From the IMG/VR virus record IMGVR_UViG_2671181111_000009: 7,997 nt of DNA. One strand, written 5' to 3'. Below, in pieces: positions 1 to 7,997 of the stretch. The translations under genes and the position numbers were made by a program. Below the pieces are notes generated by a model. The model had not been told where the DNA came from. It ran no database searches and was given only the letters and a program-made list of their open reading frames with translations. Position 1 is the first letter of the stretch, and each line of letters starts with the position of its first letter. This stretch comes from a virus. Taxonomy: Duplodnaviria > Heunggongvirae > Uroviricota > Caudoviricetes.

Positions 1-41
1 CACCTGTGTTGTTCTGAGGTGAGCATATCACCTCTGTTCAG

Positions 42-383
42 GTGGCCAAATTCAGTGTGCCACTTCATGTTCAGGCTTATGCAAACGCTGAATTTATTGC
101 TGCTTTTAATCCAAATGTTGCGCTGGCACTACTGGATGAACGGGAAAGAAACCTGCAATACATCAAAAGCCGCGATCAGGAGAACGAGGAAATTGCGCTA
201 ACGGTAGGGAAGTTGCGTGTTGAGCTGGAAGCAGCAGAGAACAACCTTATTGATAGTGAATGCCATGTTGCTGAACTGGAAGAAGCGCTACGCGATAAGC
301 AGGCGTTACTTGAAGCCTCAGAAAAGCGCATAGCAGAACTGGAGGCACAGACAGTTACCGTTAAAGAGGTTGGAGATGCTTGA
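42..383 (+). CDS. Ea22-like coiled-coil phage protein (113 aa from GTG; initiation context unclear, possibly 5'-disrupted)
   Basis: Translation contains LLDERERNLQYIKSRDQENEEIALTVGKLRVELE, matching the central segment of phage lambda Ea22 as I recall it; heptad-like coiled-coil C-terminus; no ATG anywhere in frame; in-frame TGA at 15-17. Confidence 0.45.
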   Translation: MAKFSVPLHVQAYANAEFIAAFNPNVALALLDERERNLQYIKSRDQENEEIALTVGKLRVELEAAENNLIDSECHVAELEEALRDKQALLEASEKRIAELEAQTVTVKEVGDA

Positions 384-459
384 TAGTTTTGCGCTCGTTG
401 CACTGGTTGGCATTGTAGCGTTGATTTGGGTGACATCCGGGAATCGGAGGCATAAGTGA
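376..459 (+). CDS. Small hydrophobic peptide, 27 aa (MLDSFALVALVGIVALIWVTSGNRRHK), single predicted TM helix with basic tail
   Basis: ATG at 376 preceded by AGAGG (365-369) with 6-nt spacer; ATG overlaps the upstream stop (GATGCTTGA); its TGA (457-459) overlaps the GTG start of the next ORF (GTGA). Fills the 73-bp intergenic gap exactly. Below the 60-aa cutoff of the ORF track. Confidence 0.3.
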   Translation: MLDSFALVALVGIVALIWVTSGNRRHK

Positions 460-890
460 ACGACAAAGAACTGATTAAAGAAATCAAAGAGCGTATCAGC
501 AGTTTGGATGTGCGAGACAATGTTGAACGCCGTGCTTATGAAATTGCTCTGGCATCGCTGACAGCAGAGCCGGTGGCGTGGAAGGTAACCTTCACGCAAA
601 TTGACCGTGAATATAACACGTTCACTGGTATGTATTCTGACAAAGCAGAAGTCGAACGGTGGGTGCGGCTGCATAAAGCATGTAATTTTCGGGCAGATAT
701 AACACCGCTTTATACCGCCCAGCCAGTGCCGGTAACTCCGGATGCCTGGATAAGCTGTAGTGAGCGAATGCCAGAAATGGGAGAGCGACAATGCTATGTG
801 TTAGCAGCTGACTTTAAAAACAACTACCCACCAAACATTGGCGCAGTTGTACGGAACGGATGTTGTGCGCATCCGGCAAAACCATCATGA
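456..890 (+). CDS. Phage hypothetical protein with DUF551-like C-terminal region (appears to lack the end of that domain)
   Basis: GTG start at 456 with strong SD GGAGG (446-450, 5-nt spacer); 144-aa ORF; C-terminal stretch PDAWISCSERMPEMGERQCYVLAADF resembles the start of the DUF551 family found next to Ea22-like genes in enterobacterial prophages (from memory). Confidence 0.5.
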   Translation: MNDKELIKEIKERISSLDVRDNVERRAYEIALASLTAEPVAWKVTFTQIDREYNTFTGMYSDKAEVERWVRLHKACNFRADITPLYTAQPVPVTPDAWISCSERMPEMGERQCYVLAADFKNNYPPNIGAVVRNGCCAHPAKPS

Positions 891-1545
891 AAACAAGTCG
901 CGCTTTGTTGAGGGGGTACACTTCTACAAGGTCGTTGGTGACGAGCTGCGCGCGCTAAAACACAAAGTAGCTTTAAACTACTTTGTGAAAAGTGCCCCAA
1001 ATGCACGCCACCTCATCCTCTGGACAGAGCGCGGAGCCGCCCGTCACGCGAAGATGCTCGAAACGGATCAGGCATGGGACGTGTTCGAAAAACTGGAGGA
1101 CGGCTACTTCAATCAGCGCGAAAAGGTTGCCAACCATCCTCAACCAGTACCGCAACCAGAAAGTAGCCTAGACCGTGCGCGAGCCATGGAAATAGCTTTG
1201 AACGTGGCGGATCGACTGGTGAATATGTTCCTGAATCTGTCCTCAGAATCAAAGCAGGCAGCAGTAGCTGGAGTGTTCAACCCGATTGTTGGTCGCGATG
1301 TTGTACCTCTGCCAGCTATCTCAGAGCACTACTACTCTGCTACGGAAGTCGGCCAGCGCTACGGTATTTCAGCCAACAAGGTAGGACGCATAGCCAACAC
1401 CTACATGCTCAAAACAGAAAAGTACGGGAAGTGGTTCATCGACAAATCGGCGCACAATGACAAGCAGGTTGAAACATTTCGGTACAACGAGGCTGGAGTG
1501 CACAAAATAGAGGAACTCATCGAAGGAGAGCGAAAGGCTGCATGA
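838..1545 (+). CDS. Phage antirepressor-like protein: ORF6N/Rha-like N-region plus KilAC/ANT-like HTH C-region; start codon uncertain (TTG 838 or GTG 865)
   Basis: 235-aa ORF; N-terminal LAQLYGTDVVRIRQNHHENKSRFVEGVHFYKV resembles the ORF6N domain motif (LAELYGV..LNQAVKRNIERFPEDFMFQL); C-terminal YYSATEVGQRYGISANKVGRIAN is HTH-like as in KilAC/ANT domains. No ATG and no SD near the ORF start; overlaps upstream ORF by 53 bp. Confidence 0.5.
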   Translation: MAQLYGTDVVRIRQNHHENKSRFVEGVHFYKVVGDELRALKHKVALNYFVKSAPNARHLILWTERGAARHAKMLETDQAWDVFEKLEDGYFNQREKVANHPQPVPQPESSLDRARAMEIALNVADRLVNMFLNLSSESKQAAVAGVFNPIVGRDVVPLPAISEHYYSATEVGQRYGISANKVGRIANTYMLKTEKYGKWFIDKSAHNDKQVETFRYNEAGVHKIEELIEGERKAA

Positions 1546-1559
1546 TTTTGACAAGATAG

Positions 1560-1581
1560 TTTTCCCCAAATGTGGGGAAAA
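1560..1581. other. Perfect 9-bp inverted repeat TTTTCCCCA-aatg-TGGGGAAAA (possible operator or RNA hairpin)
   Basis: Read directly: arms 1560-1568 and 1573-1581 are exact reverse complements; no downstream U-tract on either strand. Confidence 0.4.
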
Positions 1582-1623
1582 GCACGAATGGCGCGGCTTA
1601 CAGCAAGATAAGGCCTACATGAT

Positions 1624-1653
1624 TTGACAACACCGCATTAACGGGGCTATATT
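1624..1653 (+). promoter_or_regulatory. Candidate sigma70 promoter (TTGACA -35 at 1624-1629; TATATT -10 at 1648-1653; 18-bp spacer)
   Basis: Consensus -35 hexamer and 5/6 -10 hexamer in an intergenic region; predicted TSS near 1660. Confidence 0.35.
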
Positions 1654-1662
1654 CCGCTTCAT

Positions 1663-1677
1663 GGTGCTGAACACACC
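1663..1677 (+). other. Hairpin GGTG-CTGAACA-CACC (7-nt loop CTGAACA)
   Basis: Inverted repeat read directly; lies just downstream of the candidate promoter. Confidence 0.35.
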
Positions 1678-1691
1678 TTGCAAAGCGGAAA

Positions 1692-1720
1692 CCGCACCCG
1701 TCAGTCATGCGGATTTTTTA
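1692..1720 (+). terminator. Weak intrinsic-terminator-like hairpin CCGCA...TGCGG followed by ATTTTTTA
   Basis: 5-bp GC-rich stem (1692-1696 / 1708-1712) with 11-nt loop, then T-tract 1714-1719. Confidence 0.3.
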
Positions 1721-1819
1721 TGTCCATTTTTCAGATATGGTCGGGTAGCGCGTATACCGAAAAACAGCCGAAAGGTTAAGGATACGGGCCGACTTTGCAC
1801 GGTGTTCAAGTACCTGACC

Positions 1820-1838
1820 GCCCTGCTGAACACAGGGC
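1820..1838 (+). other. Hairpin GCCCTG-CTGAACA-CAGGGC (same 7-nt loop as hairpin at 1663-1677), about 30 nt upstream of the AntA-like start
   Basis: Perfect 6-bp inverted repeat with loop CTGAACA; the 10-mer GCTGAACACA is exactly repeated at 1666-1675 and 1825-1834; a third CTGAACA at 1842-1848. Confidence 0.4.
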
Positions 1839-1866
1839 TATCTGAACAAATGCAAAGGACATAAAA

Positions 1867-2490
1867 ATGACCAGTCAACTCATCCCCGTATTCAACGGCA
1901 CTATATCCAACGAAACAACTCTTCTCGTTAATGCCCGTGATTTACACGAATTTTTGGAAGTACGTCGTGACTTCTCTACATGGATTAAAAATCGCATAAC
2001 AGAATACGGCTTTGCCGTTGATGTCGATTACATTTTGGTTCACCAAAACAGGGGGATCAAAGGACGTGGAGGCGATCGCCGTAGCAAAGACTATCACCTC
2101 ACCCTCGATACAGCCAAAGAAACGGCGATGGTCGAGCGTAACGAAAAAGGCCGCCAGATACGCCGATACTTCATCGAGTGCGAAAAGAAACTTCGCAGCA
2201 TGCAACCAGCGCAGCAATTCACAGACGAAGAAATCATCCTCCTTTGCTATATGCAGGTACAGATGGAGAATGCGCAGGACATCTGCAAACGTCTGTACCC
2301 GATATTGAAGGAACTGAACTCATCATACACGAGCAAGCTGTATGACATCGCGTTTGAAACTTTTTACACGGTGACGAAAAACAGAGATGTACTGCTAAGG
2401 GAGGCGACACGACTTGACCAAGCAAGCGCCCTTTTCGAACGGGCAAAACCAATGCTGAAAAGCCTTCGGGCGAGACAATTCGAATTTTAA
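1867..2490 (+). CDS. AntA/AntB-domain antirepressor-like protein (N-terminal AntA domain about residues 1-110; C-terminal about 95 aa of unknown function)
   Basis: ATG 1867 with SD AAGGA (1855-1859, 7-nt spacer); N-terminus LIPVFNGT...LVNARDLHEFLEV..DFSTWIKNRITEYGF...DYHLTLDTAKE.AMVE...GRQIRRYFI matches the AntA-domain pattern of phage antirepressors as I recall it. Confidence 0.65.
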   Translation: MTSQLIPVFNGTISNETTLLVNARDLHEFLEVRRDFSTWIKNRITEYGFAVDVDYILVHQNRGIKGRGGDRRSKDYHLTLDTAKETAMVERNEKGRQIRRYFIECEKKLRSMQPAQQFTDEEIILLCYMQVQMENAQDICKRLYPILKELNSSYTSKLYDIAFETFYTVTKNRDVLLREATRLDQASALFERAKPMLKSLRARQFEF

Positions 2491-2495
2491 TCATC

Positions 2496-2521
2496 AAAGG
2501 AGCTTCGGCTCCTTTTTTGTT
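2496..2521 (+). terminator. Rho-independent terminator (AAAGGAGC-TTCG-GCTCCTTT stem-loop plus T6 run)
   Basis: 8-bp stem with UUCG tetraloop followed by TTTTTTGTT, 6 bp after the AntA-like stop; the A-tract upstream makes it potentially bidirectional. Confidence 0.6.
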
Positions 2522-2548
2522 GGAGAAAATAAACCAATACTCGCTCCC

Positions 2549-2590
2549 TTGCGAGTAATTGCGGAGACTTTGCGATGTACTTGACACTTC
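2549..2590 (+). promoter_or_regulatory. pI-like cII-dependent promoter (TTGC-N6-TTGC at 2549-2562; predicted TSS just inside xis)
   Basis: Direct repeat TTGC gagtaa TTGC read in sequence; geometry relative to the xis ATG (2575) matches the known lambda pI arrangement in which the transcript begins inside xis. Confidence 0.5.
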
Positions 2591-2793
2591 AGGAGTGGAA
2601 CGCACGCCAGCGACGCCCAAGGAGCCTTGAAACAGTTCGTCGATGGGTACGCGAGTGCAGGATATTCCCTCCTCCGGTTAAGGATGGAAGAGAGTATTTG
2701 TTCCACGAATCAGCGGTAAAGGTTGACTTAAATCGACCAGTAACAGGTAGCCTTTTGAAGAGGATCAGAAATGGGAAGAAGGCGAAGTCATGA
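2575..2793 (+). CDS. xis: Excisionase Xis (lambda type), 72 aa
   Basis: Translation MYLTLQEWNARQRRPRSLETVRRWVRECRIFPPPVKDGREYLFHESAVKVDLNRPVTGSLLKRIRNGKKAKS recognised as lambda Xis; SD GGAG 8 nt upstream; overlaps int by 23 bp. Confidence 0.95.
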   Translation: MYLTLQEWNARQRRPRSLETVRRWVRECRIFPPPVKDGREYLFHESAVKVDLNRPVTGSLLKRIRNGKKAKS

Positions 2794-3841
2794 GCGCCGG
2801 GATTTACCCCCTAACCTTTATATAAGAAACAATGGATATTACTGCTACAGGGACCCAAGGACGGGTAAAGAGTTTGGATTAGGCCGAGACAGGCGAATCG
2901 CAATCACTGAAGCTATACAGGCCAACATTGAGTTATTTTCAGGACACAAACACAAGCCTCTGACAGCGAGAATCAACAGTGATAATTCTGTTACGTTACA
3001 TTCATGGCTTGATCGCTACGAAAAAATCTTCGCCAGCAGAGGAATCAAGCAGAAGACACTCATAAATTACATGAGCAAAATTAAAGCAATAAGGAGGGGG
3101 CTGCCTGATGCTCCACTTGAAGACATCACCACAAAAGAAATTGCGGCAATGCTCAATGGATACATAGACGAGGGCAAGGCGGCATCAGCCAAGTTAATCA
3201 GATCAACACTGAGCGATGCATTCCGAGAGGCAATAGCTGAAGGCCATATAACAACAAACCCGGTCGCTGCCACTCGCGCAGCAAAATCAGAGGTAAGGAG
3301 ATCAAGACTTACGGCTGACGAATACCTGAAAATTTATCAAGCAGCAGAATCATCACCATGTTGGCTCAGACTTGCAATGGAACTGGCTGTTGTTACCGGG
3401 CAACGAGTTGGTGATTTATGCGAAATGAAGTGGTCTGATATCGTAGATGGATATCTTTATGTCGAGCAAAGCAAAACAGGCGTAAAAATTGCCATCCCTA
3501 CAACATTGCATGTTGATGCTCTCGGGATATCAATGAAGGAAACACTTGATAAATGCAAAGAGATTCTTGGCGGAGAAACCATAATTGCATCTACTCGTCG
3601 TGAACCGCTTTCATCCGGCACAGTATCAAGGTATTTTATGCGCGCACGAAAAGCATCAGGTCTTTCCTTCGAAGGGGATCCACCTACCTTTCACGAGTTG
3701 CGCAGTTTGTCTGCAAGACTCTATGAGAAGCAGATAAGCGATAAGTTTGCTCAACATCTTCTCGGGCACAAGTCGGACACCATGGCATCACAGTATCGTG
3801 ATGACAGAGGCAGGGAGTGGGACAAAATTGAAATCAAATAA
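2771..3841 (+). CDS. int: Tyrosine integrase Int (lambda type), 356 aa
   Basis: Translation MGRRRSHERRDLPPNLYIRNNGYYCYRDPRTGKEFGLGRDRRIAITEAIQ... through ...HLLGHKSDTMASQYRDDRGREWDKIEIK recognised as lambda Int, including the catalytic R..HxxR..Y region. Confidence 0.97.
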   Translation: MGRRRSHERRDLPPNLYIRNNGYYCYRDPRTGKEFGLGRDRRIAITEAIQANIELFSGHKHKPLTARINSDNSVTLHSWLDRYEKIFASRGIKQKTLINYMSKIKAIRRGLPDAPLEDITTKEIAAMLNGYIDEGKAASAKLIRSTLSDAFREAIAEGHITTNPVAATRAAKSEVRRSRLTADEYLKIYQAAESSPCWLRLAMELAVVTGQRVGDLCEMKWSDIVDGYLYVEQSKTGVKIAIPTTLHVDALGISMKETLDKCKEILGGETIIASTRREPLSSGTVSRYFMRARKASGLSFEGDPPTFHELRSLSARLYEKQISDKFAQHLLGHKSDTMASQYRDDRGREWDKIEIK

Positions 3842-3940
3842 TGATTTTATTTTGACTGATAATGACCTGTTCGTTGCAACAAATTGATAAGCAATGCTTT
3901 TTTATAATGCCAACTTAGTATAAAAAAGCAGGCTTCAACG
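3841..3940 (-). other. attL (B-O-P'): P' arm with arm-type Int sites, 15-bp core (3915-3929), short B arm
   Basis: Reverse complement reads ...TGAAGCCTGCTTTTTTATACTAAGTTGGCATTATAAAAAAGCATTGCTTATCAATTTGTTGCAACGAACAGGTCATTATCAGTCAAAATAAAATCATTATT, i.e. chromosomal B arm, lambda core and lambda P' arm; arm sites overlap the int stop as in lambda. Confidence 0.88.
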
Positions 3941-5399: not shown

Positions 5400-7580
5400 T
5401 TACATCTGATGGTTTTTATTGAAGTTAATCAAACTACCCGCCTTGATAATCTCGCGCTCTTCAGCCGTCAGGCTTTCCATGTAAAGCGTAATTTCCGTTA
5501 CCGGCGCATCTTCATGGATCACATAACCTTTAAACGTCGTACCCGGATTATCCAGCGCCGCTTTAATGCCAGGGATGTAAATGTAATCCCCCACTTCAAA
5601 GGTTGGCACTTCCGCCATCTGCAGCGGTAACATCCCCCAGTTGATGACGTTAGAACGGTAGCGTTTAGTCGCGTACTCCTCGGCAATATTCGCCAGACCG
5701 CCAATCACACGCTGGCAGCTCGCCGCCTGTTCACGCGCAGAACCATCGCCTGGTTTCACCGCATAGACCATGCTGCCAATTTCAGTTTGCAGCGGATCAA
5801 TATGCTCCTGACCAGCAATCTGCTTAATGCGCGCAAACACCTCTGTCAGCTCGCTGACATTCCCCGCCAGACCAATCGGATTTGAACGATAAGAAGAGGT
5901 TTCACCGGAAGGAATCAGTTCGTCGGTGGTGGTGACTTCGTCGAGGATCTTCGAGCACACTTTCAGGACGATATTGTCAGTCAGCGCACCCAATTCCGGC
6001 CAGTCTTTAATGTTCGGTCCGTAAATCAGCGGTTGCTGAGTTGCCCCTTTCACAAAGCCCTGATAAACACGGTTTTTATACGGCGTTACATCGAAGGCGT
6101 ACTCCGGCACGTTGTCCCAGCAATCAAGTTCGCTGGCAGAGGTTAAATAGCCACCGTTTGCCGCAGTCGCAGCGATAGAACGAGCGTCCATCAGCGCCAC
6201 CGCTGACATCTGCCCATTGGCTGGCTTAGAGCCTTCGCGGTTCGGGAAGTTACGCGTGGTGTGGCGAATACTCAAACCGTTGTTGATTGGCGTATCGCCC
6301 GCGCCAAAGCATGGGCCACAGAATGCGGTTCTGATGATTGCGCCTGCGCCAATCAAATCTGCTACCACACCTTTTTTGGCTAGATCCATAAACACCGGCT
6401 GTGATGACGGGTAAACCGCCAGCGAGAAGGTGTCATTGCCACAGGATTGACCGCGCAGTGCATTCGCCGCCGCGATGACGTTTTCGTAGTTACCGCCAGA
6501 ACAGCCCGCGATAATCCCCTGCTGCACTTTCAGGCGACCATTTTCCACTTTATCCAGCAGCGAGAGTTTGGCTTTACCGTGCGCCACGCGTTCGGACTCA
6601 ATTTCAATCTCACGCAGAATGTCGGTCAGGTTCTGGTTCAGTGTGTCGATTTCATACACGTTGCTCGGGTGGAACGGCAGCGCAATCATTGGTTTGATGG
6701 CGCTTAAATCAACGCTGATGCAGCCATCGTAGTACGCCATCGGTTGAGGGTTAAGCTGGCAGTAATCCTGGCCGCGACCGTGCAGCGCCAGCCAGTTATG
6801 CACTTCTTCATCAGTTTGCCAGACGGAGCTTAAACAGGTGGTTTCCGTGGTCATCACGTCAACGCTGTTACGGAAATCGGTAGAGAGCGCGCTAACGCCC
6901 GGTCCAACGAACTCCATGACTTTGTTTTTGACGTAACCGTTTTTGAACACCGCGCCAATGATAGCCAGCGCCACATCCTGTGGCCCCACATACGGCGCAG
7001 GTTTTCCGGTCAGATGCACCGCAACCACGCCCGGATAGTCGATATCCCAGGTGTCATTAAGCAGCTGTTTTACCAACTCACCGCCACCCTCACCGACTGC
7101 CATTGTCCCTAATGCACCGTAACGGGTGTGGCTGTCTGACCCGAGGATCATTTTGCCCCCGCCAGCCATCATCTCACGCATATATTGATGGATGACCGCA
7201 ATATGCGGAGGCACAAAAATACCGCCATAACGCTGAGCTGCCGATAAACCAAAAACATGGTCATCACCGTTAATGGTGCCGCCGACGGCGCAGAGTGAGT
7301 TATGGCAGTTGGTCAGCACATACGGCAGCGGGAAACGTTCCATTCCGGACGCTTTAGCGGTCTGTACAATACCAACAAAGGTAATATCGTGAGAGGCTAA
7401 TGAATCAAACTTAATTTTAAGTTTATCCATATTTCCGGACGTATTATGAGAAGAGAGAATAGACCAGGCAATAGTGCCTTTTTTTGCTTCTTCTTTTTTA
7501 ATTTCGCCGGTGAAATGTTCTTCGGCAATTATTTCGTTATTACTGGCGAGAAACACGCCTTTTTCAGATAACTTGATCAT
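5400..7580 (-). CDS. ybhJ: Aconitase-family protein YbhJ (ATG at 7580 with GGAG SD preferred; alternative GTG at 7604)
   Basis: Long ORF with aconitase-like motifs (GSDSHT, CGPCFG-like); ATG (rc of 7578-7580) has GGAG 6 nt upstream, whereas the longer GTG start at 7604 lies inside a palindrome. Confidence 0.9.
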
Positions 7581-7633
7581 CAAATGCTCCAGATATCTGC
7601 GCACCGTGAAGTGCGCAGAAAGATAATAAATGG

Positions 7634-7762
7634 ATATACTCTAAATAATTCGAGTTGCAGGAAGGCGACAAGTGAGTGAATCCCCAGGAGCTTACATAAG
7701 TAAGTGACTGGGGTGAGCGAACGCAGACGCAGCACATGCAACTTGAAGTATGACGAGTATAT
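7634..7762. repeat. ERIC (enterobacterial repetitive intergenic consensus / IRU) element
   Basis: Contains GTGAATCCCCAGGAGCTTACAT and AAGTAAGTGACTGGGGTGAGCG, exact matches to the ERIC1R (reverse complement) and ERIC2 primer sequences, with the characteristic central inverted repeat. Confidence 0.85.
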
Positions 7763-7931
7763 TTACAGCATGTTCCAGCCGATCAGCATATTCCACCACC
7801 ACACGCCGAGGGTGATATGCACCAAGAAGGTTAATATCGTCAGTACCGCACCGACCAACCACCAGGATTTAATATCGTTGTAACCCACGCCAAAGATGAC
7901 CGGACCTGCCGCGCCGCCATAGTGAGTAACC
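7763..7931 (-). pseudogene. ybhI: 3'-terminal fragment (about 55 codons) of a ybhI-like DASS-family anion transporter gene, separated from the rest of the gene by IS1
   Basis: Hydrophobic C-terminal peptide ...THYGGAAGPVIFGVGYNDIKSWWLVGAVLTILTFLVHITLGVWWWNMLIGWNML; reading frame runs directly into the IS1 inverted repeat and hits a stop inside IS1; K-12 synteny places ybhI upstream of ybhJ. Confidence 0.6.
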
Positions 7932-7997
7932 GGTAATGACTCCAACTTACTGATAGTGTTTTATGTTCAGATAATGCCCGATGACCTTGTCATGCAG
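7932..7997 (-). mobile_element. IS1 element, right end (IRR) only; continues beyond window end
   Basis: Minus strand reads CTGCATGACAAGGTCATCGGGCATTATCTGAACATAAAACACTATCAGTAAGTTGGAGTCATTACC, matching the IS1 right end including the 23-bp terminal inverted repeat (two differences from the isoform I recall). Confidence 0.88.
7947..7997 (-). CDS. insB: IS1 transposase InsB, C-terminal 16 codons (partial at window edge)
   Basis: Minus-strand frame translates ...LHDKVIGHYLNIKHYQ followed by a stop, matching the InsB C-terminus as I recall it. Confidence 0.6.
   Translation of the reverse strand: MHDKVIGHYLNIKHYQ

Follow-up and report, generated by a model that had tools for sequence, protein, structure and literature searches.

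An IS1 insertion in the ybhI transporter gene of Shigella flexneri and the chimeric reading frame at its edge

Results

The right end of the window

The window, by which we mean the whole 7,997-nucleotide stretch of DNA analysed here, holds at its right end the gene ybhJ, a palindromic spacer, the 3' end of the transporter gene ybhI and one end of an IS1 element:

5400-7580, minus strand: ybhJ, encoding an aconitase-family hydratase of 726 aa; the gene downstream of the insertion
7634-7762: ERIC-like imperfect palindrome of 129 bp between ybhI and ybhJ, part of the native spacer and found at this position in K-12 too
7763-7931, minus strand: ybhI 3' remnant of 169 nt, residues V423-L477, stop codon at 7763-7765
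7763-7945, minus strand: 60-aa chimeric ORF, with a TTG start and 14 nt from the IS1 repeat followed by 55 ybhI codons
7923-7931: one copy of a 9-bp target-site duplication, TGAGTAACC on the plus strand and GGTTACTCA in the gene sense
7932-7997, minus strand: IS1 right end, comprising the terminal inverted repeat and the insB 3' end
7932-7954, minus strand: IS1 terminal inverted repeat, 23 bp, reading GGTAATGACTCCAACTTACTGAT
7947-7997, minus strand: last 16 codons and stop of insB, with a translation ending in ...LHDKVIGHYLNIKHYQ

When positions 7400-7997 are read through, the character of the sequence shifts at 7932, from where it runs to the window end as GGTAATGACTCCAACTTACTGATAGTG... A first-pass annotation of this DNA had placed an IS1 terminal inverted repeat at that point, and the assignment was borne out by matches both to annotated IS1 elements and to S. 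flexneri loci. When 7600-7997 was compared by megablast with 5426 complete E. coli genomes, the segment 7932-7997 matched annotated IS1 copies by the thousand, with many places in each genome, and the segment 7600-7931 aligned, with identities of up to 99.4%, to ybhI (annotated as 'anion permease') and to the spacer between ybhI and ybhJ. The final 66 bases of the window are thus IS1, with the remaining 702 bp of the element past the window edge, and four S. flexneri loci carry a complete IS1 of 768 bp whose right end matches them with 100% identity. The C-terminus of insB reads ...HYQ on the minus strand and ends in a stop codon at 7947-7949, so that insB reads toward the ybhI 3' end and ybhJ, as the first-pass annotation had it.

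On the minus strand the ybhI frame runs on into IS1 (...II, stop, T, stop, NTISKLESLPVTHYGGAAGPVIFGVGYNDIKSWWLVGAVLTILTFLVHITLGVWWWNMLIGWNML, stop), and its first upstream in-frame stop lies at 7961-7963, inside the element. The 60-aa ORF had been described as a chimera of IS1 and ybhI, and this description is correct: its TTG lies in the inverted repeat of IS1. Gene calls in S. flexneri assemblies include the same ORF, and it stands in public databases under the name 'inner membrane ybhI domain protein [Shigella flexneri K-1770 / VA-6]'. Translational coupling to insB might be considered, as the TTG lies one base after the insB stop, but no Shine-Dalgarno sequence accompanies it. Most likely, this ORF is a gene-calling artefact and not a gene.

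The complete element and its target duplication

The part of IS1 beyond 7997 was read from S. flexneri records that match the window, the window's own sequence being limited to the 66 bp above. The window's exact 726-aa YbhJ was looked up in an assembly collection, yielding 436 blocks, and ten places were examined. One of these, here called L010, is CP032513 from S. flexneri 3b strain SFL1520; its identity to the window is 100% in both stretches compared, 7560-7997 and 1-300. The SFL1520 genome carries 355 IS elements, with IS1 as the commonest family (PMC6424224). The deposited names of the 726-aa YbhJ, of the 60-aa chimera and of a 447-aa product of the ybhI 5' part are all from Shigella flexneri. 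The check past the window edge that the first-pass annotation had proposed gave, in these records, a full IS1 body and then the 5' part of ybhI, with the features:

L010 8882-9649: complete IS1 in ybhI, 768 bp
L010 8873-8881 and 9650-9658: the two copies of GGTTACTCA, directly outside both IS1 ends

The left end of this element reads GGTAATGCTGCCAACTTACTGAT, and 20 of the first 23 bases agree between the left and right repeats (IRL and IRR). It carries insA with the Pfam domains Zn_ribbon_InsA and HTH_Tnp_IS1 (PF03811, PF12759), the insA/insB' frameshift motif TTAAAAAAC (A6C, for a -1 frameshift; also given as TTAAAAAACTC) and a 232-aa InsAB' fusion call bearing DDE_Tnp_IS1 (PF03400). Over 768 bp the element is 99.7% identical to elements annotated as IS1 family transposase, and a full-length match to it occurs in 4951 of the 5426 E. 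coli genomes.

The nonamer at 7923-7931 had been predicted to recur at the other IS1 end, and in the S. flexneri records it does flank the element on both sides. It corresponds to ybhI nt 1266-1274 (codons M422-H425), and GGTTACTCA is single-copy in intact E. coli and K-12 ybhI. Compared with intact ybhI of E. coli and of K-12, the two gene halves overlap by exactly the nine duplicated bases and nothing is missing. The left junction is identical in all ten S. flexneri records examined, CP066809 among them. In these records the event is a simple insertion of IS1 at ybhI nt 1266-1274. Since the element, the gene and both junctions were each matched independently, chance resemblance can be ruled out.

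In CP066809 the IS1 at the same ybhI site measures 535 bp (L015 2480-3014); 233 bp are missing internally, between early insA and the A6C frameshift motif. Either the copy is a defective derivative, or the long-read assembly is in error here.

A 40-nt exact junction query gave no match in species-representative genomes, a collection in which Shigella probably has no separate entry. The exact junction was also absent from all 5426 complete E. coli genomes, where matches of full coverage consisted of two pieces, with the IS1 elsewhere.

The two parts of ybhI

Intact ybhI is a gene of 1434 nt (477 aa) between ybhH and ybhJ, as in E. coli strain 120899 and K-12, and the gene order ybhD / ybhH-ybhI-ybhJ / ybhC is conserved at the locus. 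The remnant in the window comprises 55 codons and the stop, 99.4% identical to E. coli ybhI, and homology to the K-12 gene (b0770) starts exactly at GGTTACTCA. The earlier estimate that the insertion lies about 55 codons from the 3' end of ybhI is in fact an exact count (V423-L477). That the C-terminal peptide belongs to YbhI, as had been supposed, is likewise supported by its alignment to K-12 YbhI, to solved homologues and to the Pfam profile Na_sulph_symp (PF00939), of which it covers positions 421-472 of 472 (E 2e-16). The remnant is cut off from the ybhI start codon and promoter.

Translation of the 5' part now yields residues 1-424 and then seven residues contributed by IS1 (QVMLPTY), ending at a stop in the left repeat of the element. 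This agrees with the 447-aa gene call in strains that have seven copies of an octanucleotide repeat described below; the 447-aa product spans positions 2-424 of the Pfam profile. Intact YbhI aligns over nearly its whole length to solved transporters of the DASS family, the chloroplast DiT1 (9mcr) and LaINDY (6wtw), and the alignment includes the lost segment and the conserved ...THYG... stretch where the break falls. The segment missing from the 5' product amounts to 53 residues, starting inside the conserved ...GGMVTHYGG... and including the final hydrophobic segment of the DASS fold. Given that family-conserved residues and the last hydrophobic stretch are lost, the place of the break suggests that the split YbhI transporter is most likely dead. 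A putative tricarboxylate/malate-related role has been proposed for the transporter, and deletion of ybhD has a malate-related effect on growth (PMC9068703).

The spacer and the left part of the window

The ERIC-like palindrome between the ybhI remnant and ybhJ has arms at 7634-7659/7737-7762 and 7682-7695/7700-7713, and is left unchanged by the insertion. We assume that it matches the core of the ERIC consensus, and use the ERIC label in that sense; ERIC units are imperfect palindromes of about 127 bp that lie in transcribed intergenic DNA and occur several times in a genome. A query containing the palindrome found about four more places per genome than queries of IS1 and single-copy DNA. Just before the ybhJ ribosome-binding region lies a perfect 8-bp GC-rich hairpin (7600-7621, CTGCGCAC TTCACG GTGCGCAG), which is also unchanged in K-12.

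In the left part of the window (1-3929), the remnant of a lambdoid prophage is integrated beside ybhC, at the attachment site of lambda, with the following features:

1739-1827, plus strand: match to sRNA-Xcc1 (RF02221), full model length, 68 bits against a gathering score of 53
1867-2490: antA-like ORF
2575-2793: excisionase
2771-3841: integrase
3915-3929: exact lambda att core, GCTTTTTTATACTAA

The sRNA-Xcc1 match, a short distance upstream of the antA-like ORF of the prophage, is the sole Rfam match; it is unrelated to the insertion, and Rfam gave nothing in the IS1/ybhI region. Positions 1-66 form the end of a different insertion sequence, which lies on the minus strand and starts TGAAGTGGCACACTGAATTTGG at base 66, so that the window is bracketed by 66 bp of IS sequence at both ends. 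In L010, an IS3-family transposase ORF beginning MKKRNFSAEFKRES lies just outside the window's left edge. This element, which we take to be IS911-like, interrupts an ead/Ea22-like gene of the prophage.

Other lesions in the ybhD-ybhHIJ cluster

The insertion is accompanied by damage to the neighbouring genes, located as follows:

L010 4534-5487: ybhD, a regulator gene, with the in-frame stop Q181*
L010 5645-6412: second complete IS1, in the opposite orientation, with duplications at 5636-5644 and 6413-6421
L010 ~8248-8287, L003 ~8230-8287 and L015 1836-1890: tandem GCCGGATT repeats in ybhI, outside the window

The ybhJ allele of the window has an in-frame deletion of 81 bp, or 27 codons, corresponding to residues 571-597 in the E. 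coli protein of 753 aa. Two copies of CCGCCAGAC, of which one survives at 5864-5872, flank the deleted segment, which falls between the aconitase and swivel domains. The exact 726-aa protein is named 'hydratase [Shigella flexneri]' on 383 contigs, and is named only from this species. Upstream, the second IS1 sits 35 bp before the ybhH ATG in S. flexneri, with the duplication GCAATAAGT.

The 5' part of ybhI itself carries the octanucleotide GCCGGATT, present in 4-7 tandem copies in S. flexneri and in one copy in E. coli. There are five copies in SFL1520, six in CP066809 and seven in L003; four in L004 are inferred from a gene call shorter by 24 nt. The repeat shifts the ybhI frame unless three or six copies are added, and the gene is frameshifted in SFL1520 and CP066809. 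Taken together, the ybhD-ybhHIJ cluster is decaying as a whole in this IS1-rich lineage.

E. coli FDAARGOS_943 (L002), which carries ipaH, shares the prophage and the ybhC-ybhJ region, and its lesions differ: ybhJ is split by an IS5-family element and ybhD by IS1, the prophage contains IS600, and ybhI has remained intact. In this Shigella-like, EIEC-like strain, decay of the cluster has taken its own, independent course.

IS1 in ybhI across E. coli

Synthetic queries, in which 332 nt of chromosome were joined to either IS1 end, were run against the 5426 complete E. coli genomes. IS1 was found in or just upstream of ybhI, at other positions than in S. flexneri, in 56 of them, distributed as follows:

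ybhI 3' half: same orientation, 19 genomes; opposite orientation, 18 genomes
ybhI 5' half and upstream spacer: same orientation, 6 genomes; opposite orientation, 13 genomes
ybhJ control of equal size: 0 genomes with the same-orientation query
ybhC control of equal size: 0 genomes with the same-orientation query
Example sites: L013 2040-2070; L022 1740-1760; L023/L024 1650-1660

Estimated from the match spans, these hits represent about 25 or more combinations of site and orientation. One site has IS1 in both orientations at the identical nucleotide; at a second, the positions for the two orientations are 1 nt apart. The inferred positions cluster at ybhI nt 925-1189 and at -75 to +336. GC content falls to 0.32 over nt 1-60 of ybhI and again over nt 1021-1080, both within the cluster regions, and AT-rich 30-mers make up 19-24% of the ybhI targets versus 2% of the controls. 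The S. flexneri insertion site lies outside the E. coli clusters, in a stretch of 60% GC.

In E. coli PCN061 (L022 1750-2831) and 2018-11-3CC (L023 1654-2918), IS1 in ybhI is followed not by the remainder of ybhI but by a fragment of ybhH or ybhD. These two are IS1-adjacent deletions that started from an insertion in ybhI.

Discussion

It is very likely that the right end of the window records the insertion of a full-length IS1 into ybhI in an S. flexneri ancestor, which split the gene and was followed by neutral pseudogenisation. According to this model, the element would have transposed into ybhI in the ancestor of the sampled S. flexneri strains, where a 9-bp staggered cut at ybhI nt 1266-1274 would have duplicated GGTTACTCA. 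The gene would thereby have been divided into a promoter-proximal part, encoding residues 1-424 and QVMLPTY, and the last 55 codons, stranded downstream of IS1. The insertion would be one of several lesions in a decaying ybhD-ybhHIJ cluster, and would represent neutral pseudogenisation rather than a regulatory device. Neutrality is suggested by the other lesions that have accumulated in the cluster.

Two other histories of the junction were weighed. An IS1 end next to a truncated gene could also arise by IS1-mediated deletion or inversion, or by recombination between IS1 copies, in which case the 5' part of ybhI would be missing or lie elsewhere. Such events have a precedent at this very gene in E. 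coli PCN061 and 2018-11-3CC, and two more IS1 copies are found within 7 kb in S. flexneri. However, the ten S. flexneri records all have the ybhI 5' part and the 9-bp duplication at the other IS1 end; with both junctions and the duplication intact and no gene sequence lost, a rearrangement junction was rejected as extremely improbable. A different possibility is that loss of YbhI was advantageous, so that the insertion became fixed in S. flexneri and ybhI was hit repeatedly in E. coli. The insertion is indeed present in every S. flexneri record examined, and independent IS1 copies in or near ybhI in 56 E. coli genomes contrast with none in the matched ybhJ and ybhC stretches. Yet the E. coli sites cluster in AT-rich patches of ybhI, the use of identical or 1-nt-apart positions in both orientations is a mark of target preference, AT-rich 30-mers are scarce in the control stretches (2%, against 19-24% in the ybhI targets), and in a clonal, IS-laden pathogen fixation by drift is to be expected. 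We know of no phenotype of ybhI loss, and the malate-related growth effect of deleting ybhD was the one hint of function that we found. Selected loss thus appears improbable, if less so than a rearrangement.

The first-pass annotation had further suggested that outward read-through or a hybrid promoter could affect the ERIC element and ybhJ, a suggestion that found no support in the sequence. Hybrid promoters of IS1 combine an outward -35 box in the IS1 repeat with a -10 at the right distance (PMC8764528, PMC9330008). The candidate outward -35 in the element is TTGGAG (window 7945-7940), which at 16, 17 and 18 nt faces ACTATG, CTATGG and TATGGC, with 2, 0 and 3 of 6 matches to the -10 consensus. 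The best candidate at the junction, TTGGAG/TATGGC, agrees at 6 of 12 consensus positions, and TATGGC lacks the final T. A consensus scan of the minus strand between IS1 and ybhJ found no promoter-like site, and a relaxed scan of the same interval by hand found no credible hybrid or outward promoter. The proposal that the outward -35, or read-through from insAB', switches on or increases transcription across the ERIC element and ybhJ has to contend not only with this poor -10 pairing and empty scan but also with the 351 bp, holding the ERIC palindrome and the GC hairpin, that separate IS1 from the ybhJ start. In addition, ybhJ carries its 27-codon deletion and its regulator gene ybhD a stop codon. 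We regard activation of ybhJ as very unlikely. The known IS1 fusion promoters (e.g. upstream of afaA, acrEF and blaTEM) resemble the present case in having an IS1 end properly oriented toward the downstream gene. They differ in that here the needed -10 hexamer is lacking 16-18 nt from the IS1 -35, and in that the element has landed within coding sequence, with 351 bp to the next start codon, and not in a promoter region. If the insertion has any effect on ybhJ, it is more likely to be polar than activating. Polarity is a classical property of IS1, and would lower ybhJ transcription coming from upstream, not raise it.

With neutral insertion of IS1 into ybhI as the preferred reading, the individual components are all familiar. 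The element resembles the IS1 family in its length of 768 bp, its imperfect repeats of about 23 bp beginning GGTAATG and its 9-bp duplication, as well as in the order insA then insB', with the A6C -1 frameshift site and the DDE_Tnp_IS1 domain. The ybhI copy belongs to a variant group about 90-95% identical to the IS1A-type copies of K-12, and otherwise differs in nothing of substance. We presume this variant group to be IS1N or IS1X in ISfinder. Relative to YbhI of K-12 (b0770), the DNA is near-identical and the synteny ybhH-ybhI-ERIC-ybhJ-ybhC is shared, whereas the S. flexneri gene is split and has 4-7 octanucleotide copies versus one in E. coli. The formation of pseudogenes by IS1 is a textbook property of Shigella. 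The present case is like other IS-mediated pseudogenes of Shigella in that a transport gene is split by a simple IS1 in an IS-rich genome (PMC6424224), with damaged neighbours. The insertion is thus ordinary and already represented in public genome records. We found no published account of this particular insertion, which is visible in deposited annotations; its ordinariness would explain why no paper was devoted to it.

The recurrence of IS1 in ybhI goes beyond S. flexneri. On balance, we tend to the view that ybhI is a preferred landing site of IS1 across E. coli and Shigella, and that the S. flexneri insertion is one of dozens of independent ones. A regional AT preference of IS1 was reportedly described by Zerbib et al. 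in 1985, a study listed in PMC9330008. The recurrent hits are most likely caused by such a preference for AT-rich regions. That inactivation of the transporter was selected for is less likely, because the sites follow the AT-rich patches and insertions in the two orientations share the same or neighbouring positions. The recurrent IS1 insertions in the AT-rich patches of ybhI agree with the known target choice of IS1 and may be of interest to those who map IS hot spots.

For the annotation of these genomes, the 60-aa 'gene' can be relabelled as an artefact of the IS1/ybhI junction, which warns annotators against calling the chimeric ORF. As a lineage marker in S. flexneri, one could use the junction along with the variable (GCCGGATT)n that closely precedes it in ybhI. 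For the biology of the organism, the split ybhI adds one more pseudogene to the well-known IS-driven genome decay of S. flexneri.
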